A DNA stretch of 64,000 nt from TPA_inf: Saccharomyces (GCA_000146045.2 BK006945.2:640001-704000); one strand, 5' to 3'; shown: positions 6,415-18,825, numbered from the stretch's first letter. Translations and numbers: made by a program. The notes: a model not told the origin generated them from the letters alone.

Positions 6415-9400
6415 ATGTCGAATACCCCTTATAATTCATCTGTGCCTTCCATTGCATCCATGACCCAGTCTTCGGTCTCAAGAAGTCCTAACATGCATAC
6501 AGCAACTACGCCCGGTGCCAACACCAGCTCTAACTCTCCACCCTTGCACATGTCTTCAGATTCGTCCAAGATCAAGAGGAAGCGTAACAGAATTCCGCTC
6601 AGTTGCACCATTTGTCGGAAAAGGAAAGTCAAATGTGACAAACTCAGACCACACTGCCAGCAGTGCACTAAAACTGGGGTAGCCCATCTCTGCCACTACA
6701 TGGAACAGACCTGGGCAGAAGAGGCAGAGAAAGAATTGCTGAAGGACAACGAATTAAAGAAGCTTAGGGAGCGCGTAAAATCTTTAGAAAAGACTCTTTC
6801 TAAGGTGCACTCTTCTCCTTCGTCTAACTCCTTGAAAAGTTACAACACTCCCGAGAGCAGCAACCTGTTTATGGGTAGCGATGAACACACCACCCTTGTT
6901 AATGCAAATACAGGCTCTGCTTCCTCTGCCTCGCATATGCATCAGCAACAACAGCAACAGCAGCAACAGGAACAACAACAAGACTTTTCCAGAAGTGCGA
7001 ACGCCAACGCGAATTCCTCGTCCCTTTCTATCTCAAATAAATATGACAACGATGAGCTGGACTTAACTAAGGACTTTGATCTTTTGCATATCAAAAGTAA
7101 CGGAACCATCCACTTAGGTGCCACCCACTGGTTGTCTATCATGAAAGGTGACCCGTACCTAAAACTTTTGTGGGGTCATATCTTCGCTATGAGGGAAAAG
7201 TTAAATGAATGGTACTACCAAAAAAATTCGTACTCTAAGCTGAAGTCAAGCAAATGTCCCATCAATCACGCGCAAGCGCCGCCTTCTGCCGCTGCCGCCG
7301 CTACCAGAAAATGTCCTGTTGATCACTCCGCGTTTTCGTCTGGCATGGTGGCCCCAAAGGAGGAGACTCCTCTTCCTAGGAAATGTCCAGTTGACCACAC
7401 CATGTTCTCTTCGGGAATGATTCCTCCCAGAGAGGACACTTCGTCCCAGAAGAGGTGTCCCGTTGACCACACCATGTATTCCGCAGGAATGATGCCGCCC
7501 AAGGACGAGACACCTTCCCCATTTTCCACTAAAGCTATGATAGACCATAACAAGCATACAATGAATCCGCCTCAGTCAAAATGTCCTGTGGACCATAGAA
7601 ACTATATGAAGGATTATCCCTCTGACATGGCAAATTCTTCTTCGAACCCGGCAAGTCGTTGCCCCATTGACCATTCAAGCATGAAAAATACAGCGGCCTT
7701 ACCAGCTTCAACGCACAATACCATCCCACACCACCAACCACAGTCCGGATCTCATGCTCGTTCGCATCCCGCACAAAGCAGGAAACATGATTCCTACATG
7801 ACAGAATCTGAAGTCCTCGCAACACTTTGTGAGATGTTGCCACCAAAGCGCGTCATCGCATTATTCATCGAGAAATTCTTCAAACATTTATACCCTGCCA
7901 TTCCAATCTTAGATGAACAGAATTTCAAAAATCACGTGAATCAAATGCTTTCGTTGTCTTCGATGAATCCCACAGTTAACAACTTTGGTATGAGCATGCC
8001 ATCTTCATCTACACTAGAGAACCAACCCATAACACAAATCAATCTTCCAAAACTTTCCGATTCTTGTAACTTAGGTATTCTGATAATAATCTTGAGATTG
8101 ACATGGCTATCCATACCTTCTAATTCCTGCGAAGTCGACCTGGGAGAAGAAAGTGGCTCATTTTTAGTGCCCAACGAATCTAGCAATATGTCTGCATCTG
8201 CATTGACCTCGATGGCTAAAGAAGAATCACTTCTGCTAAAGCATGAGACACCGGTCGAGGCACTGGAGCTATGTCAAAAATACTTGATTAAATTCGATGA
8301 ACTTTCTAGTATTTCCAATAACAACGTTAATTTAACCACGGTGCAGTTTGCCATTTTTTACAACTTCTATATGAAAAGTGCCTCTAATGATTTGACTACC
8401 TTGACAAATACCAACAACACTGGCATGGCCAATCCTGGTCACGATTCCGAGTCTCACCAGATCCTATTGTCCAATATTACTCAAATGGCCTTTAGTTGTG
8501 GGTTACACAGAGACCCTGATAATTTTCCTCAATTAAACGCTACCATTCCAGCAACCAGCCAGGACGTGTCTAACAACGGGAGCAAAAAGGCAAACCCTAG
8601 CACCAATCCAACTTTGAATAACAACATGTCTGCTGCCACTACCAACAGCAGTAGCAGATCTGGCAGTGCTGATTCAAGAAGTGGTTCTAACCCTGTGAAC
8701 AAGAAGGAAAATCAGGTTAGTATCGAAAGATTTAAACACACTTGGAGGAAAATTTGGTATTACATTGTTAGCATGGATGTTAACCAATCTCTTTCCCTGG
8801 GGAGCCCTCGACTACTAAGAAATCTGAGGGATTTCAGCGATACAAAGCTACCAAGTGCGTCAAGGATTGATTATGTTCGCGATATCAAAGAGTTAATCAT
8901 TGTGAAGAATTTTACTCTTTTTTTCCAAATTGATTTGTGTATTATTGCTGTATTAAATCACATTTTGAATGTTTCTTTAGCAAGAAGCGTGAGAAAATTT
9001 GAACTGGATTCATTGATTAATTTATTGAAAAATCTGACCTATGGTACTGAGAATGTCAATGATGTAGTGAGCTCCTTGATCAACAAAGGGTTATTACCAA
9101 CTTCGGAAGGTGGTTCTGTAGATTCAAATAATGATGAAATTTACGGTCTACCGAAACTACCCGATATTCTAAACCATGGTCAACATAACCAAAACTTGTA
9201 TGCTGATGGAAGAAATACTTCTAGTAGTGATATAGATAAGAAATTGGACCTTCCTCACGAATCTACAACGAGAGCTCTATTCTTTTCCAAGCATATGACA
9301 ATTAGAATGTTGCTGTACTTATTGAACTACATTTTGTTTACTCATTATGAACCAATGGGCAGTGAAGATCCTGGTACTAATATCCTAGCTAAGGAGTACG

Positions 9401-10923
9401 CTCAAGAGGCATTAAATTTTGCCATGGATGGCTACAGAAACTGCATGATTTTCTTCAACAATATCAGAAACACCAATTCACTATTCGATTACATGAATGT
9501 TATCTTGTCTTACCCTTGTTTGGACATTGGACATCGTTCTTTACAATTTATCGTTTGTTTGATCCTGAGAGCTAAATGTGGCCCATTGACTGGTATGCGT
9601 GAATCATCGATCATTACTAATGGTACATCAAGTGGATTTAATAGTTCGGTAGAAGATGAGGACGTCAAAGTTAAACAAGAATCTTCTGATGAATTGAAAA
9701 AAGACGATTTCATGAAAGATGTAAATTTGGATTCAGGCGATTCATTAGCAGAGATTCTAATGTCAAGAATGCTGCTATTTCAAAAACTAACAAAACAACT
9801 ATCAAAGAAGTACAACTACGCTATTCGTATGAACAAATCCACTGGATTCTTTGTCTCTTTACTAGATACACCTTCAAAGAAATCAGACTCGAAATCGGGT
9901 GGTAGTTCATTCATGTTGGGTAATTGGAAACATCCAAAGGTTTCAAACATGAGCGGATTTCTTGCTGGTGACAAAGACCAATTACAGAAATGCCCCGTGT
10001 ACCAAGATGCGCTGGGGTTTGTTAGTCCAACCGGTGCTAATGAAGGTTCTGCTCCGATGCAAGGCATGTCCTTACAGGGCTCTACTGCTAGGATGGGAGG
10101 GACCCAGTTGCCACCAATTAGATCATACAAACCTATCACGTACACAAGTAGTAATCTACGTCGTATGAATGAAACGGGTGAGGCAGAAGCTAAGAGAAGA
10201 AGATTTAATGATGGCTATATTGATAATAATAGTAACAACGATATACCTAGAGGAATCAGCCCAAAACCTTCAAATGGGCTATCATCGGTGCAGCCACTAT
10301 TATCGTCATTTTCCATGAACCAGCTAAACGGGGGTACCATTCCAACGGTTCCATCGTTAACCAACATTACTTCACAAATGGGAGCTTTACCATCTTTAGA
10401 TAGGATCACCACTAATCAAATAAATTTGCCAGACCCATCTAGAGATGAAGCATTTGACAACTCCATCAAGCAAATGACGCCTATGACAAGTGCATTCATG
10501 AATGCTAATACTACAATTCCAAGTTCAACTTTAAACGGGAATATGAACATGAATGGAGCTGGAACTGCGAATACAGATACAAGTGCCAACGGCAGTGCTT
10601 TATCGACACTGACAAGCCCACAAGGCTCAGACTTAGCATCCAATTCTGCTACACAGTATAAACCTGACTTAGAAGACTTTTTGATGCAAAATTCTAACTT
10701 TAATGGGCTAATGATAAATCCTTCCAGTCTGGTAGAAGTTGTTGGTGGATACAACGATCCTAATAACCTTGGAAGAAATGACGCGGTTGATTTTCTACCC
10801 GTTGATAATGTTGAAATTGATGGTGTTGGAATAAAAATCAACTATCATCTACTAACTAGTATTTACGTTACTAGTATATTATCATATACGGTGTTAGAAG
10901 ATGACGCAAATGATGAGAAATAG
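6415..10923 (+). CDS. HAP1: Hap1 heme-activated Zn2Cys6 transcription factor in its Ty1-disrupted S288C-type form; the last 32 codons are read from the Ty1 5' LTR
   Basis: The N-terminus carries the Zn2Cys6 cluster CTICRKRKVKCDKLRPHCQQCTK. It also has a polyQ tract and seven KCPVDH-type heme-regulatory motifs. The ORF runs into TGTTGGAATA... (LTR) at 10824 and stops at 10921-10923 inside the LTR (...VGIKINYHLLTSIYVTSILSYTVLEDDANDEK), giving 1502 aa. Confidence 0.95.
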   Translation: MSNTPYNSSVPSIASMTQSSVSRSPNMHTATTPGANTSSNSPPLHMSSDSSKIKRKRNRIPLSCTICRKRKVKCDKLRPHCQQCTKTGVAHLCHYMEQTWAEEAEKELLKDNELKKLRERVKSLEKTLSKVHSSPSSNSLKSYNTPESSNLFMGSDEHTTLVNANTGSASSASHMHQQQQQQQQQEQQQDFSRSANANANSSSLSISNKYDNDELDLTKDFDLLHIKSNGTIHLGATHWLSIMKGDPYLKLLWGHIFAMREKLNEWYYQKNSYSKLKSSKCPINHAQAPPSAAAAATRKCPVDHSAFSSGMVAPKEETPLPRKCPVDHTMFSSGMIPPREDTSSQKRCPVDHTMYSAGMMPPKDETPSPFSTKAMIDHNKHTMNPPQSKCPVDHRNYMKDYPSDMANSSSNPASRCPIDHSSMKNTAALPASTHNTIPHHQPQSGSHARSHPAQSRKHDSYMTESEVLATLCEMLPPKRVIALFIEKFFKHLYPAIPILDEQNFKNHVNQMLSLSSMNPTVNNFGMSMPSSSTLENQPITQINLPKLSDSCNLGILIIILRLTWLSIPSNSCEVDLGEESGSFLVPNESSNMSASALTSMAKEESLLLKHETPVEALELCQKYLIKFDELSSISNNNVNLTTVQFAIFYNFYMKSASNDLTTLTNTNNTGMANPGHDSESHQILLSNITQMAFSCGLHRDPDNFPQLNATIPATSQDVSNNGSKKANPSTNPTLNNNMSAATTNSSSRSGSADSRSGSNPVNKKENQVSIERFKHTWRKIWYYIVSMDVNQSLSLGSPRLLRNLRDFSDTKLPSASRIDYVRDIKELIIVKNFTLFFQIDLCIIAVLNHILNVSLARSVRKFELDSLINLLKNLTYGTENVNDVVSSLINKGLLPTSEGGSVDSNNDEIYGLPKLPDILNHGQHNQNLYADGRNTSSSDIDKKLDLPHESTTRALFFSKHMTIRMLLYLLNYILFTHYEPMGSEDPGTNILAKEYAQEALNFAMDGYRNCMIFFNNIRNTNSLFDYMNVILSYPCLDIGHRSLQFIVCLILRAKCGPLTGMRESSIITNGTSSGFNSSVEDEDVKVKQESSDELKKDDFMKDVNLDSGDSLAEILMSRMLLFQKLTKQLSKKYNYAIRMNKSTGFFVSLLDTPSKKSDSKSGGSSFMLGNWKHPKVSNMSGFLAGDKDQLQKCPVYQDALGFVSPTGANEGSAPMQGMSLQGSTARMGGTQLPPIRSYKPITYTSSNLRRMNETGEAEAKRRRFNDGYIDNNSNNDIPRGISPKPSNGLSSVQPLLSSFSMNQLNGGTIPTVPSLTNITSQMGALPSLDRITTNQINLPDPSRDEAFDNSIKQMTPMTSAFMNANTTIPSSTLNGNMNMNGAGTANTDTSANGSALSTLTSPQGSDLASNSATQYKPDLEDFLMQNSNFNGLMINPSSLVEVVGGYNDPNNLGRNDAVDFLPVDNVEIDGVGIKINYHLLTSIYVTSILSYTVLEDDANDEK

Positions 10924-11157
10924 TCATCTAAATTAGTGGAAGCTGAAACGCAAGGATTGATAATGTAATAGGATCAATGAATATTAACATATAAAACGAT
11001 GATAATAATATTTATAGAATTGTGTAGAATTGCAGATTCCCTTTTATGGATTCCTAAATCCTCGAGGAGAACTTCTAGTATATTCTGTATACCTAATATT
11101 ATAGCCTTTATCAACAATGGAATCCCAACAATTATCTCAACACCCACACATTTCTCA
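10824..11157 (+). repeat. Ty1 5' LTR (delta), 334 bp
   Basis: Starts TGTTGGAATAAAAATCAACTATCATCTACTAACTAG and ends ...CATTTCTCA. It is almost identical to the 3' LTR, differing at about 4 positions, all within the last 25 bp. Confidence 0.95.
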
Positions 11158-12439
11158 TGGTAGCGCCTGTGCTTCGGTTACTTCTAAGGAAGTCCACACA
11201 AATCAAGATCCGTTAGACGTTTCAGCTTCCAAAACAGAAGAATGTGAGAAGGCTTCCACTAAGGCTAACTCTCAACAGACAACAACACCTGCTTCATCAG
11301 CTGTTCCAGAGAACCCCCATCATGCCTCTCCTCAACCTGCTTCAGTACCACCTCCACAGAATGGGCCGTACCCACAGCAGTGCATGATGACCCAAAACCA
11401 AGCCAATCCATCTGGTTGGTCATTTTACGGACACCCATCTATGATTCCGTATACACCTTATCAAATGTCGCCTATGTACTTTCCACCTGGGCCACAATCA
11501 CAGTTTCCGCAGTATCCATCATCAGTTGGAACGCCTCTGAGCACTCCATCACCTGAGTCAGGTAATACATTTACTGATTCATCCTCAGCGGACTCTGATA
11601 TGACATCCACTAAAAAATATGTCAGACCACCACCAATGTTAACCTCACCTAATGACTTTCCAAATTGGGTTAAAACATACATCAAATTTTTACAAAACTC
11701 GAATCTCGGTGGTATTATTCCGACAGTAAACGGAAAACCCGTACGTCAGATCACTGATGATGAACTCACCTTCTTGTATAACACTTTTCAAATATTTGCT
11801 CCCTCTCAATTCCTACCTACCTGGGTCAAAGACATCCTATCCGTTGATTATACGGATATCATGAAAATTCTTTCCAAAAGTATTGAAAAAATGCAATCTG
11901 ATACCCAAGAGGCAAACGACATTGTGACCCTGGCAAATTTGCAATATAATGGCAGTACACCTGCAGATGCATTTGAAACAAAAGTCACAAACATTATCGA
12001 CAGACTGAACAATAATGGCATTCATATCAATAACAAGGTCGCATGCCAATTAATTATGAGAGGTCTATCTGGCGAATATAAATTTTTACGCTACACACGT
12101 CATCGACATCTAAATATGACAGTCGCTGAACTGTTCTTAGATATCCATGCTATTTATGAAGAACAACAGGGATCGAGAAACAGCAAACCTAATTACAGGA
12201 GAAATCTGAGTGATGAGAAGAATGATTCTCGCAGCTATACGAATACAACCAAACCCAAAGTTATAGCTCGGAATCCTCAAAAAACAAATAATTCGAAATC
12301 GAAAACAGCCAGGGCTCACAATGTATCCACATCTAATAACTCTCCCAGCACGGACAACGATTCCATCAGTAAATCAACTACTGAACCGATTCAATTGAAC
12401 AATAAGCACGACCTTCACCTTAGGCCAGGAACTTACTGA
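11117..12439 (+). CDS. Ty1 TYA (Gag) capsid protein, 440 aa; it starts inside the 5' LTR
   Basis: [35 protein letters not shown]... is 440 aa. The +1 frameshift heptamer CTTAGGC lies at 12419-12425, just before the TYA stop. Confidence 0.95.
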
Positions 12440-13385
12440 ATCTACGGTAAATCACACTAATCATTCTGATGATGAACTCCCTGGACACCTCCTTCTCGAT
12501 TCAGGAGCATCACGAACCCTTATAAGATCTGCTCACCACATACACTCAGCATCATCTAATCCTGACATAAACGTAGTTGATGCTCAAAAAAGAAATATAC
12601 CAATTAACGCTATTGGTGACCTACAATTTCACTTCCAGGACAACACCAAAACATCAATAAAGGTATTGCACACTCCTAACATAGCCTATGACTTACTCAG
12701 TTTGAATGAATTGGCTGCAGTAGATATCACAGCATGCTTTACCAAAAACGTCTTAGAACGGTCTGACGGCACTGTACTTGCACCTATCGTAAAATATGGA
12801 GACTTTTACTGGGTATCTAAAAAGTACTTGCTTCCATCAAATATCTCCGTACCCACCATCAATAATGTCCATACAAGTGAAAGTACACGCAAATATCCTT
12901 ATCCTTTCATTCATCGAATGCTTGCGCATGCCAATGCACAGACAATTCGATACTCACTTAAAAATAACACCATCACGTATTTTAACGAATCAGATGTCGA
13001 CTGGTCTAGTGCTATTGACTATCAATGTCCTGATTGTTTAATCGGCAAAAGCACCAAACACAGACATATCAAAGGTTCACGACTAAAATACCAAAATTCA
13101 TACGAACCCTTTCAATACCTACATACTGACATATTTGGTCCAGTTCACAACCTACCAAATAGTGCACCATCCTATTTCATCTCATTTACTGATGAGACAA
13201 CAAAATTCCGTTGGGTTTATCCATTACACGACCGTCGCGAGGACTCTATCCTCGATGTTTTTACTACGATACTAGCTTTTATTAAAAACCAGTTTCAGGC
13301 CAGTGTCTTAGTTATACAAATGGACCGTGGTTCTGAGTATACTAACAGAACTCTCCATAAATTCCTTGAAAAAAAAATGGTATAA
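12423..13385 (+). pseudogene. Ty1 TYB (Pol) part 1: protease and integrase N-terminus, read in the +1 frame; it terminates prematurely after an A9 tract
   Basis: The frame entered by the +1 shift at CTT-AGG-C encodes [11 protein letters not shown] (protease DSG) and the integrase zinc finger H..H..CPDC. It ends ...HKFLEKKMV* at 13383-13385, immediately after a 9-A run at 13369-13377. Confidence 0.8.
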
Positions 13386-16300
13386 CTCCATGCTATACAA
13401 CCACAGCGGATTCCCGAGCACATGGAGTCGCTGAACGGCTAAACCGTACCTTATTAGATGACTGCCGTACTCAACTGCAATGTAGTGGTTTACCGAACCA
13501 TTTATGGTTCTCTGCAATCGAATTTTCTACTATTGTGAGAAATTCACTAGCTTCACCTAAAAGCAAAAAATCTGCAAGACAACATGCTGGCTTGGCAGGA
13601 CTTGATATCAGTACTTTGTTACCTTTCGGTCAACCTGTTATCGTCAATGATCACAACCCTAACTCCAAAATACATCCTCGTGGCATCCCAGGCTACGCTC
13701 TACATCCGTCTCGAAACTCTTATGGATATATCATCTATCTTCCGTCCTTAAAGAAGACAGTAGATACAACTAACTATGTTATTCTTCAGGGCAAGGAATC
13801 CAGATTAGATCAATTCAATTACGACGCACTCACTTTCGATGAAGACTTAAACCGTTTAACTGCTTCATATCATTCGTTCATTGCGTCAAATGAGATCCAA
13901 GAATCCAATGATCTTAACATAGAATCTGACCATGACTTCCAATCCGACATTGAACTACATCCTGAGCAACCGAGAAATGTCCTTTCAAAAGCTGTGAGTC
14001 CAACCGATTCCACACCTCCGTCAACTCATACTGAAGATTCGAAACGTGTTTCTAAAACCAATATTCGCGCACCCAGAGAAGTTGACCCCAACATATCTGA
14101 ATCTAATATTCTTCCATCAAAGAAGAGATCTAGCACCCCCCAAATTTCCAATATCGAGAGTACCGGTTCGGGTGGTATGCATAAATTAAATGTTCCTTTA
14201 CTTGCTCCCATGTCCCAATCTAACACACATGAGTCGTCGCACGCCAGTAAATCTAAAGATTTCAGACACTCAGACTCGTACAGTGAAAATGAGACTAATC
14301 ATACAAACGTACCAATATCCAGTACGGGTGGTACCAACAACAAAACTGTTCCGCAGATAAGTGACCAAGAGACTGAGAAAAGGATTATACACCGTTCACC
14401 TTCAATCGATGCTTCTCCACCGGAAAATAATTCATCGCACAATATTGTTCCTATCAAAACGCCAACTACTGTTTCTGAACAGAATACCGAGGAATCTATC
14501 ATCGCTGATCTCCCACTCCCTGATCTACCTCCAGAATCTCCTACCGAATTCCCTGACCCATTTAAAGAACTCCCACCGATAAATTCTCGTCAAACTAATT
14601 CCAGTTTGGGTGGTATTGGTGACTCTAATGCCTATACTACTATCAACAGTAAGAAAAGATCATTAGAAGATAATGAAACTGAAATTAAGGTATCACGAGA
14701 CACATGGAATACTAAGAATATGCGTAGTTTAGAACCTCCGAGATCGAAGAAACGAATTCACCTGATTGCAGCTGTAAAAGCAGTAAAATCAATCAAACCA
14801 ATACGGACAACCTTACGATACGATGAGGCAATCACCTATAATAAAGATATTAAAGAAAAAGAAAAATATATCGAGGCATACCACAAAGAAGTCAATCAAC
14901 TGTTGAAGATGAAAACTTGGGACACTGACGAATATTATGACAGAAAAGAAATAGACCCTAAAAGAGTAATAAACTCAATGTTTATCTTCAACAAGAAACG
15001 TGACGGTACTCATAAAGCTAGATTTGTTGCAAGAGGTGATATTCAGCATCCTGACACTTACGACTCAGGCATGCAATCCAATACCGTACATCACTATGCA
15101 TTAATGACATCCCTGTCACTTGCATTAGACAATAACTACTATATTACACAATTAGACATATCTTCGGCATATTTGTATGCAGACATCAAAGAAGAATTAT
15201 ACATAAGACCTCCACCACATTTAGGAATGAATGATAAGTTGATACGTTTGAAGAAATCACTTTATGGATTGAAACAAAGTGGAGCGAACTGGTACGAAAC
15301 TATCAAATCATACCTGATACAACAATGTGGTATGGAAGAAGTTCGTGGATGGTCATGCGTATTTAAAAACAGTCAAGTGACAATTTGTTTATTCGTAGAT
15401 GATATGGTATTGTTTAGCAAAAATCTAAATTCAAACAAAAGAATTATAGAGAAGCTTAAGATGCAATACGACACCAAGATTATAAATCTAGGCGAAAGTG
15501 ATGAGGAAATTCAATATGACATACTTGGCTTAGAAATCAAATATCAAAGAGGTAAATACATGAAATTAGGTATGGAAAACTCATTAACTGAGAAAATACC
15601 CAAATTAAACGTACCTTTGAATCCAAAAGGAAGAAAACTTAGCGCTCCAGGTCAACCAGGTCTTTATATAGACCAGGATGAACTAGAAATAGATGAAGAT
15701 GAATACAAAGAGAAGGTACATGAAATGCAAAAGTTGATTGGTCTAGCTTCATATGTTGGATATAAATTTAGATTTGACTTACTATACTACATCAACACAC
15801 TTGCTCAACATATACTATTCCCCTCTAGGCAAGTTTTAGACATGACATATGAGTTAATACAATTCATGTGGGACACTAGAGATAAACAATTAATATGGCA
15901 CAAAAACAAACCTACCAAGCCAGATAATAAACTAGTCGCAATAAGCGATGCTTCATATGGTAACCAACCATATTACAAGTCACAAATTGGTAACATTTTC
16001 CTACTCAACGGAAAAGTGATTGGAGGAAAGTCGACAAAGGCTTCGTTAACATGCACTTCAACTACAGAAGCAGAAATACACGCAGTCAGTGAAGCTATAC
16101 CGCTATTGAATAACCTCAGTCACCTTGTGCAAGAACTTAACAAGAAACCAATTATTAAAGGCTTACTTACTGATAGTAGATCAACGATCAGTATAATTAA
16201 GTCTACAAATGAAGAGAAATTTAGAAACAGATTTTTTGGCACAAAGGCAATGAGACTTAGAGATGAAGTATCAGGTAATAATTTATACGTATACTACATC

Positions 16301-16387
16301 GAGACCAAGAAGAACATTGCTGATGTGATGACAAAACCTCTTCCGATAAAAACATTTAAACTATTAACAAACAAATGGATTCATTAG
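13376..16387 (+). pseudogene. Ty1 TYB (Pol) part 2: rest of integrase, reverse transcriptase (YVDDM-type motif [11 protein letters not shown]) and RNase H, in a frame shifted -1 relative to part 1
   Basis: Translation from about 13376 in frame 2 gives [24 protein letters not shown]... and runs to the stop at 16385-16387 (...LLTNKWIH*). This is colinear with Ty1 Pol but out of frame with part 1. Confidence 0.8.
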
Positions 16388-16409
16388 ATCTATTACATTA
16401 TGGGTGGTA

Positions 16410-16743
16410 TGTTGGAATAAAAATCAACTATCATCTACTAACTAGTATTTACGTTACTAGTATATTATCATATACGGTGTTAGAAGATGACGCAAATGAT
16501 GAGAAATAGTCATCTAAATTAGTGGAAGCTGAAACGCAAGGATTGATAATGTAATAGGATCAATGAATATTAACATATAAAACGATGATAATAATATTTA
16601 TAGAATTGTGTAGAATTGCAGATTCCCTTTTATGGATTCCTAAATCCTCGAGGAGAACTTCTAGTATATTCTGTATACCTAATATTATAGCCTTTATCAA
16701 CAATGGAATCCCAACAATTATCTAATTACCCACAAATTTCTCA
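16410..16743 (+). repeat. Ty1 3' LTR (delta), 334 bp
   Basis: TGTTGGAATAAAAATCAACTATC...CAAATTTCTCA, preceded by the polypurine tract GGGTGGTA. Confidence 0.95.
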
Positions 16744-16791
16744 GATGGACTAGTAGATTTTTATAGAGCAGATTTTCCAATATGGGAGTGA
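16744..16791 (+). other. HAP1: Orphaned original HAP1 3' end: TSD copy, 13 displaced C-terminal codons (LVDFYRADFPIWE) and the native TGA stop
   Basis: Reading gat gga cta gta gat ttt tat aga gca gat ttt cca ata tgg gag tga continues the HAP1 frame across the TSD. These codons are no longer joined to the ORF. Confidence 0.85.
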
Positions 16792-16925: not shown

Positions 16926-16933
16926 TATTTACT

Positions 16934-17006
16934 TGGACGAGTCCGGAATCGAACCGGAGACCTCTCCCATGCTAAGGGAGCGCGCTACCGACTACGCCAC
17001 ACGCCC
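16934..17006 (-). tRNA. tA(AGC): tRNA-Ala (anticodon AGC), 73 nt
   Basis: The reverse complement GGGCGTGTGGCGTAGTCGGTAGCGCGCTCCCTTAGCATGGGAGAGGTCTCCGGTTCGATTCCGGACTCGTCCA folds as a cloverleaf. It has the G3:U70 alanine identity pair and the anticodon loop TTAGCAT, and A/B-box-like segments are present. Confidence 0.95.
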
Positions 17007-17021
17007 AATTTTCTTGTTGTC

Positions 17022-17448: not shown

Positions 17449-17767
17449 TGTTGGAATGAAGGCCTAGTATTGTCTATTGACTAATATTCATCTTACTAGT
17501 ATATTATCATATACAGTGTAAGAAGATGGCATAAAGATTGAGAACCAGTCATCAGACTAATGAAAGCTGAAATGCAAGGACTGATAATGTAATGGGATAA
17601 TGAAATATATAAAACGGAAGGAGAAATAACCGTGATATTATTATGTAGATTTACCGACTCCACTTGGAGGATTTCTCTATTCTCGAGGGAAACTTGGTAT
17701 ATTCGTACACCTAATATTATAGCTCTTGATAACAATGAAATTTCAACAATTATTCACTCAACCCTCA
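17449..17767 (+). mobile_element. Degenerate Ty1/Ty2 delta solo LTR (~320 bp; the 3' boundary is approximate)
   Basis: TGTTGGAATGAAGGCCTAGTATTGTC...ACTAGTATATTATCATATACAGTGTAAGAAGATGGCATAAAG...CTCGAGGGAAACTTGGTATATTCGTACACCTAATATTATAGC is about 80% similar to the Ty1 LTR. Confidence 0.8.
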
Positions 17768-18825
17768 AGTGTATATCGCCAAGATCCTAATCACCCCTCT
17801 CTGGTGGCCTTCCCTCATTGTTTTTACACAGAACAAGAATCCATAAAATCAAGATATTGGGAACAATTCATTGTCTTAGGAACAAGTTTTTATAATTTAG
17901 TTTCATTAGCCTATTGTAACTTCTTGTTTTTTTTTTTTATTTTGGCTGGCAAAACAAGAAGTATAAAGAAGTTACCACTGCTATAACGTATATCTTAAAT
18001 CAAGTGGGCAATTCTTCGAATAAACTTAGAGGCGCTGAAGAAAGAACCGCTCAATTAGTTCGATCATACAAAATACAGATATTGCGCTGTGTATTATCAT
18101 TACGGAAAGTGTGATATAAACAATGCTGTGTTGTATTCGGTCTTTTTTTTCCGCCTGGAGATTGTCGTTTTTGTTTTTTTTTCTCGTGTAGCTGCAGTTA
18201 TCATCGTTTTGCATGTCTGTTCTGTCGGTGAAGCCGATCTCATGGCACTTCGCTTTGATACCGTAAAGAATCTTCTTCATTAATACGGCACTGCAAGGCG
18301 ATATCTATCTCTGGGGTTAGGACTGATAAATAGGTACTTATCAGTTATCACTAGAGACGAACTGTTTACGTTTTGAAGCTCGACAGCAGGGGTTCTTAAC
18401 GGGCGTCGGCCTAGACCTCACCTTGCGAGAAATTTTTAGTTCATATCCAGGGGATGGTGAATGGTTGGATCTGACGAAGCCACGGTAAGGGCAAGGCTTT
18501 GCGCATGCACTGGCCACTATGCATACCATATATAAATAGATAATCAAGCGTATAGAAAACGACATGCTAAGTTATTTTACTCAGTGTTAGGTCTCTTAGT
18601 ATTTGCGTCTGAAAAGATCTTAGCTCTGTCTTTGACTCTATCACTTATTTTTAAGAGGTTCTCTATTCGTCAGTGATAGAAATAGCATTTTGACCCGCAC
18701 GACATTGGTTAATAAGAGTACTTTTCCACGTGTTTCGATTGCCTTTATTTTTAGCATACTTGAAAATAATATTATCGTGAGATTTAGGTAAAATATACCA
18801 CATATCAAGAGAAAGAGAAGTAAGA

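Follow-up and report, generated by a model that had tools for sequence, protein, structure and literature searches.

A full-length Ty1 element at the 3' end of HAP1

The stretch of DNA that we analyzed (64,000 nucleotides; GCA_000146045.2, BK006945.2:640001-704000; referred to as the window and counted from its first letter) is part of chromosome XII of Saccharomyces cerevisiae S288C, and the element located at positions 10824-16743 is YLRWTy1-3, the well-known S288C-specific insertion of a Ty1 retrotransposon into HAP1. This assignment follows from the exact matches of two encoded proteins to S288C RefSeq entries, together with a passage of one paper that places YLRWTy1-3 in the HAP1 3' region. 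The first of these proteins is the product of an open reading frame of 1502 codons (6415-10923), which is identical to S288C Hap1p (NP_013357.1), and the second is the Gag protein of the element (NP_058173.1). The insertion is missing from other strains, whose HAP1 encodes a protein of 1483 amino acids; the S288C protein aligns with it up to residue 1470 and then diverges. As detailed below, YLRWTy1-3 is very probably a full-length Ty1 of the S288C lineage in which the lengthening of a run of seven A residues (A7) to nine (A9) breaks Pol within the integrase core and leaves the element non-autonomous. The features of the locus are as follows.

6415-10923, plus strand: HAP1 (YLR256W), S288C allele; 1470 native residues, with the final 32 codons and the stop codon inside the Ty1 5' long terminal repeat (LTR)
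10819-10823, no strand: target-site duplication, left copy, GATGG; identical to 16744-16748
10824-11157, plus strand: 5' LTR (delta), 334 bp, TG...CA; direct repeat with 16410-16743
11117-12439, plus strand: TYA (Gag), intact, 440 amino acids; YLR256W-A, UniProt "Ty1-LR4 Gag polyprotein"; exact match to NP_058173.1
11158-11167, plus strand: primer-binding site TGGTAGCGCC, read from the sequence and adjoining the 5' LTR
12419-12425, plus strand: intact heptamer CTT AGG C, the site of the +1 ribosomal frameshift of Ty1, inside the TYA/TYB overlap
12423-13385, plus strand: TYB part 1; protease (DSG), integrase zinc-binding region and integrase core as far as the second catalytic Asp; ends K-M-V-stop with TAA at 13383-13385
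13369-13377, plus strand: A9 homopolymer, the +2 frameshift lesion (A7 in in-frame relatives), from the sequence and the comparison with relatives
13376-16387, plus strand: TYB part 2, read in the -1 frame; remainder of the integrase with the catalytic Glu and the C-terminal region, followed by reverse transcriptase and RNase H; open to its stop codon and severed from translation
16401-16409, plus strand: polypurine tract TGGGTGGTA, abutting the 3' LTR
16410-16743, plus strand: 3' LTR (delta), 334 bp; direct repeat with the 5' LTR
16744-16748, no strand: target-site duplication, right copy, GATGG; matches the left copy

With a length of 5920 bp, YLRWTy1-3 exceeds by 2 bp the size expected of the same element with A7. 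It possesses the structural hallmarks of Ty1: LTRs flanked by a target-site duplication, a primer-binding site and a polypurine tract, a TYA/TYB overlap carrying CTTAGGC, and the Ty1 order of Pol domains, which Pfam resolves as Pol_BBD, rve, SH3_retrovirus and RVT_2 and which corresponds to protease, integrase, reverse transcriptase and RNase H. We take the primer-binding site TGGTAGCGCC to be complementary to the 3' end of the initiator tRNA-Met. All cis signals recognizable in the sequence are intact, including the CTT AGG C motif that is used by Ty1 as its +1 shift site (PMC5009743).

Nine A residues interrupt Pol in the integrase core

The sequence at the site of interest reads CCTTG-AAAAAAAAA-TGGTATAAC, and the A9 run occupies exactly positions 13369-13377, where an earlier note made from the DNA sequence had located it. 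Within the 5920-bp element, this is the sole run of A or T with a length of at least eight. Runs of at least nine are common in the window as a whole (17 A/T runs), but their chance frequency is not the relevant test, since the criterion is a +2 difference in length from in-frame relatives at the homologous position, and this difference could be shown directly.

In the Pol frame that is entered at CTTAGGC, the codons at the run are GAA AAA AAA ATG GTA TAA, and translation stops at the TAA at 13383-13385, while the frame one base back (-1) is open for about 1000 codons up to a stop codon at 16385-16387. The A-run corresponds to residues 752/753 of Gag-Pol, and the stop codon falls between D736 and E772 of the integrase; it thus lies inside the catalytic core, behind both catalytic Asp residues and ahead of the catalytic Glu. 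The Pfam matches reflect this position. In the truncated Pol protein we found Pol_BBD (residues 24-98) and an rve domain (residues 228-317) whose match ends at position 89 of the 102 positions of the profile, and downstream of the A-run the retroviral SH3-like domain (SH3_retrovirus) and RVT_2 were detected. The statements of the earlier note about the codons at the run, about protease and the N-terminal part of the integrase preceding it, and about a colinear Pol sequence that continues in the -1 frame to position 16387 are therefore all borne out by translation and domain searches.

The earlier note had also claimed that the removal of two A residues would restore Pol. When we deleted two A residues in silico, a Gag-Pol protein of the canonical length of 1755 amino acids without any internal stop was indeed obtained. 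All expected motifs are present in this repaired protein: the protease DSG, the HHCC and the D, D, E residues of the integrase, the FVDDM motif (YXDD type) of the reverse transcriptase, and RNase H. Since the repaired frame is free of stop codons and retains all these motifs, the A9 run is the only lesion that breaks the reading frame. Autonomy takes a TYB frame that begins at the +1 shift site and runs without interruption through RNase H, and in YLRWTy1-3 this frame is cut by the stop at 13383-13385. The element consequently does not encode full Gag-Pol in one frame, whereas its Gag is still encoded by an intact TYA, as the earlier note had likewise maintained on both counts.

In-frame relatives of the Ty1/Ty2 type carry seven A residues

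We compared the site with that of related elements. Three Ty1/Ty2-type sequences whose Pol frame is open across the site were recovered: a 5.4-kb contig with an open Pol frame of 1328 codons (L002), a metagenome contig (L006), and a copy with a divergent gag gene in the assembly GCA_002335645.1 (L008). All three carry A7, as had been supposed for functional relatives of the element, and the block around the A-run is at least 99% identical among these sequences. Judged by them, the A9 run is abnormal for the family. A more distant Ty1-like protein (P0035) contains no Lys-coding run at this site (FTNRG).

The alignment of L008 (5710-11594) with the window element (10824-16743) revealed a strongly mosaic pattern of identity, with values of 85-88% for gag, 99-100% for protease, integrase and the core of the reverse transcriptase, and 76-96% for the 3' third; the A-run is located in the most conserved block of this comparison. 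Such a mosaic is in keeping with the recombination that is known to take place between Ty1 and Ty2 lineages.

Several searches for further copies gave little. No record was found when other S288C Ty1 copies were looked up via their Gag proteins (P0024-P0026), probably since only the longer Gag-Pol proteins are indexed, and a homologue search with the repaired 1755-residue Gag-Pol returned just four proteins, none of them an S288C Gag-Pol entry. Exact look-ups of the truncated open reading frame with five possible starts, performed to find other occurrences of A9, gave no match, and no second Ty1 Pol copy for a direct comparison was found within the 64-kb window. A pattern scan that allowed 5-11 bases between the flanks of the A-run retrieved two metagenome contigs, of which one has A7 and the other A9; the same pattern was not found in the viral and prokaryotic genome collections.

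An A9 run is present in contig L007 (LAFL01000792.1; 1546 bp), which originates from another data set and has its A-run at about position 1264. It differs from the window element by 10 single-nucleotide polymorphisms, all of them with the common Ty1 allele in L007, and by an extra A outside any homopolymer near window position 12584. Either a chimeric path was assembled here, or L007 stems from a second, recombinant copy with A9. An A9 run in a different polymorphism background bears on a mobilization of the element in trans, but a chimeric path is equally possible, and we did not count this contig as evidence for mobilization.

The A9 run is probably not a sequencing artefact

Since homopolymers are prone to miscalls, the true element might possess A7 and be autonomous, with the two additional A residues stemming from an error of sequencing or assembly. 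A separately assembled chromosome XII (GCA_016858165.1) speaks to this issue: it contains the identical element with A9 and differs from the window by one single-nucleotide polymorphism in 13.3 kb, while the length of the chromosome and the coordinates of the locus in this record differ from those of the window. The recovery of A9 in this assembly argues against a sequencing error. A miscall by +2 is also less typical than one by +1 or -1, RefSeq and UniProt list a Gag product only at this locus, and release R64 of the S288C reference rests on a resequencing of the strain.

Some points nevertheless weigh against our interpretation of YLRWTy1-3 as a Pol-defective copy. The assembly GCA_016858165.1 may have been polished against the reference. 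Public assemblies do contain artefactual variation in the length of homopolymers, and a protein derived from a Logan assembly (P0040) implies A6 at the site along with a contraction from A5 to A4 about 70 nucleotides upstream. Furthermore, the timing and the mechanism of the change from A7 to A9 are matters that we infer. Taken with the evidence from the separate assembly, the A9 run is probably not an artefact on the sequences at hand, and we consider an error that conceals a true, autonomous A7 element to be scarcely credible. P0040 corresponds to window positions of about 12918-13480, a region in which the Ty1 homopolymer lengths are unreliable in some public assemblies.

A leak at the A-run is formally possible

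The mutated run has a property that the earlier note did not mention. In the frame in which ribosomes arrive, positions 13370-13376 read A_AAA_AAA, which formally is a -1 slippery heptamer of the X_XXY_YYZ type, and a -1 shift is exactly the one that rejoins the downstream Pol frame. A ribosomal slip by -1 would produce LEKKNGIT, with one extra Lys, and a transcript with A10 would yield the same protein; a transcript with two fewer A residues (A7) would give wild-type Pol. One may therefore ask if A9 serves as a working recoding site at which -1 frameshifting, or slippage of RNA polymerase II, provides enough Gag-Pol for autonomy.

The register of the slippery run is the one required for such a function. 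Moreover, slippage on runs of this kind is documented: bacterial RNA polymerases slip efficiently on runs of nine A or T residues, and eukaryotic cases of slippage (human TGFBR2 and ATRX) as well as ribosomal frameshifting on A-runs have been described (reviewed in PMC5009743). A hairpin of 7 bp can be drawn at 13377-13396 (AUGGUAU/AUGCUAU); however, it contains two G-U pairs, is weak, and begins just 1 nucleotide after the heptamer, whereas a stimulatory structure would be expected at a distance of 5-9 nucleotides, and the region folds no better than shuffled sequence does (z = -1.57; 16 of 200 shuffles were as stable). The relatives speak against this proposal too, because L002, L006 and L008, with their A7 run, encode Pol in a single frame that needs no shift, and P0035 lacks the Lys-coding run altogether; there is thus no conservation of, or selection for, a shift site. 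Any leak would, in addition, be multiplied with the upstream +1 shift and with the low ratio of Gag-Pol to Gag, which is about 3% (PMC5009743). We consider it highly improbable that the A9 run sustains autonomy in this way and rejected a programmed recoding site, given that the site is unconserved and that no convincing stimulator is apparent downstream. For the same two reasons, any leak would be an accidental by-product of the mutation, and its level is probably low.

Predicted products of YLRWTy1-3 and origin of the lesion

With Pol broken by the A9 run, ribosomes that have carried out the normal +1 shift at CTTAGGC would stop at residue 755 of Gag-Pol. The predicted product consists of Gag, protease and a fragment of the integrase, and would be devoid of the catalytic Glu, the integrase C-terminus, the reverse transcriptase and RNase H. 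YLRWTy1-3 should still supply Gag, a packageable RNA and, presumably, p22. The latter protein is derived from Gag and functions as a copy-number-control factor of Ty1 (PMC4599808). Since all cis signals are intact, we infer that the element could be mobilized in trans, as the earlier note had proposed, although it is non-autonomous; its RNA would be packaged, reverse-transcribed and integrated only through the Pol proteins of other Ty1 copies. Ty1 proteins do act in trans, as established by helper/donor assays, which were reportedly those of Xu and Boeke in 1990 and of Curcio and Garfinkel in 1994.

How the two A residues were gained can be approached through the age of the insertion. The LTRs of YLRWTy1-3 agree at 330 of their 334 positions, with all four differences located between LTR positions 315 and 326, and no strain outside the S288C lineage is seen to carry the insertion; the element is therefore very young, and it carries no other defect. 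Slippage by the Ty1 reverse transcriptase or by RNA polymerase II during the cycle that produced the insertion most likely gave rise to the lesion; as an alternative, it may have been inherited from a defective parent that had been mobilized in trans. In another scenario, the copy that integrated had A7 and was autonomous, and it acquired the two A residues afterwards through slippage during chromosomal replication. Homopolymer runs are indeed hot spots for replication slippage, and the sequence itself does not date the gain of the A residues relative to integration. Little time has elapsed, however, since the insertion exists only in the S288C lineage and its LTRs are identical apart from the patch of four differences at one end, and replication slippage mostly adds or removes one residue, so that a gain of two demands either an uncommon double step or the fixation of two changes in succession. 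Ty1 reverse transcription, on the other hand, is said to be error-prone, with a sizeable fraction of new copies being mutated, a finding attributed to Gabriel and co-workers (PNAS, 1996). The short time available and the lack of a second lesion make a +2 gain by chromosomal replication far less likely than one during the retrotransposition cycle, and we rate a late gain as an unlikely course of events.

The four differences between the LTRs lie at positions 315, 317, 318 and 326 of the repeats (11138-11149 versus 16724-16735). They are confined to 12 nucleotides of U5, inside TYA codons 8-12, while the first 314 nucleotides of both LTRs are identical. This cluster looks more like a patch of recombination or conversion than like independent point mutations.

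The insertion site and its neighborhood

The HAP1 reading frame extends by 100 bp into the 5' LTR of YLRWTy1-3, with the junction at 10823/10824, and represents the classic hap1 allele of S288C. On the other side, a tRNA-Ala(AGC) gene is located on the minus strand at 16933-17007, 190 bp past the 3' end of the element, and a degenerate solo delta (about 17449-17780) is found about 440 bp upstream of this tRNA gene, with 77-82% identity to the LTR in three matched segments. The presence of the tRNA gene and of the solo delta indicates that the insertion in HAP1 occurred in a neighborhood typical for Ty1 targets, beside a gene transcribed by RNA polymerase III.

Previous records and implications

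The defect of YLRWTy1-3 is already known at the level of annotation, and the element is an ordinary non-autonomous member of a known family. We base this assessment on the names that RefSeq and UniProt give for the locus, all of those found being names of Gag, and on the SGD entry, in which YLR256W-A is reportedly described as part of a mutant retrotransposon. The annotated assembly GCA_016858165.1 likewise calls no Pol gene after TYA. In our search of the literature, we found no explicit description of the A7-to-A9 frameshift of YLRWTy1-3. Beyond what the earlier note contained, the analysis thus adds the identity of the element as the known HAP1 Ty1, its Gag-only status in the databases, and the -1 ribosomal slip as a further route by which the frame could be restored.

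In passages of two recent papers (PMC11258251; PMC9467533), YLRWTy1-3 is used as a "representative" Ty1, and in one of the two it is called the most expressed Ty1 in S288C, with reference to Morillon 2002; these passages make no mention of the frameshifted Pol. If YLRWTy1-3 truly contributes a large share of the Ty1 mRNA, then much of the Gag-Pol in laboratory strains would, speculatively, be a stump composed of Gag, protease and integrase sequences without a reverse transcriptase. One could extend this thought and propose that the element, which would still add Gag and p22, acts on balance as a natural inhibitor of Ty1 mobility; a related idea is that the A9 RNA is mobilized in trans. We view these proposals as doubtful; if the element were such an inhibitor, strains with a repaired HAP1 gene, from which the Ty1 has been removed, would show altered retromobility.

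A practical caveat arises from the fact that the HAP1 Ty1 is standard in S288C, BY and FY strains, yet its Pol is broken. Those who use this copy for cloning or as a target for read mapping, or who remove it in order to repair HAP1, should be aware that Gag and presumably p22 are provided by it, whereas reverse transcriptase and a complete integrase are not. Although no new biological question is opened by it, YLRWTy1-3 is a clean natural example of how a single homopolymer slip renders a young retrotransposon non-autonomous.

Comparison with known systems

The closest known system is the canonical autonomous Ty1 of the Ty1-H3 type (Pseudoviridae, Ty1/copia). YLRWTy1-3 shares with it the 334-bp TG...CA LTRs, the 5-bp target-site duplication, TGGTAGCGCC and TGGGTGGTA, the TYA protein of 440 amino acids, CTTAGGC, the order of protease, integrase, reverse transcriptase and RNase H, and, once two A residues are removed, a Gag-Pol of 1755 amino acids. 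It differs from this type in having A9 instead of A7 and in the truncation of Gag-Pol at residue 755.

Changes in the length of homopolymers that are partly rescued by low-level frameshifting offer another parallel, exemplified by the G-run mutants of the herpesvirus thymidine kinase (PMC5009743). In these mutants, as in YLRWTy1-3, a change in the length of a coding run breaks the frame while the run itself is slippery for ribosomes and polymerases, so that the synthesis of a little full-length product is conceivable. Unlike in the viral mutants, there is no sign in YLRWTy1-3 that rescue happens or is selected, and Pol is in any case available from the other Ty1 copies of the genome, which number about 30.

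With regard to its mode of existence, YLRWTy1-3 resembles the Gag-only or mutant Ty copies and the helper-dependent mini-Ty1 elements, which have intact cis signals, are missing Pol function, and depend for their mobility on Ty1 proteins provided in trans. In contrast to the mini-Ty1 elements, it is natural, of full length and affected by a single 2-bp lesion, and it is not a deletion derivative. It furthermore differs from both the mini-Ty1 elements and the mutant Ty copies in that, judged by its motifs, it still appears to encode an active protease.

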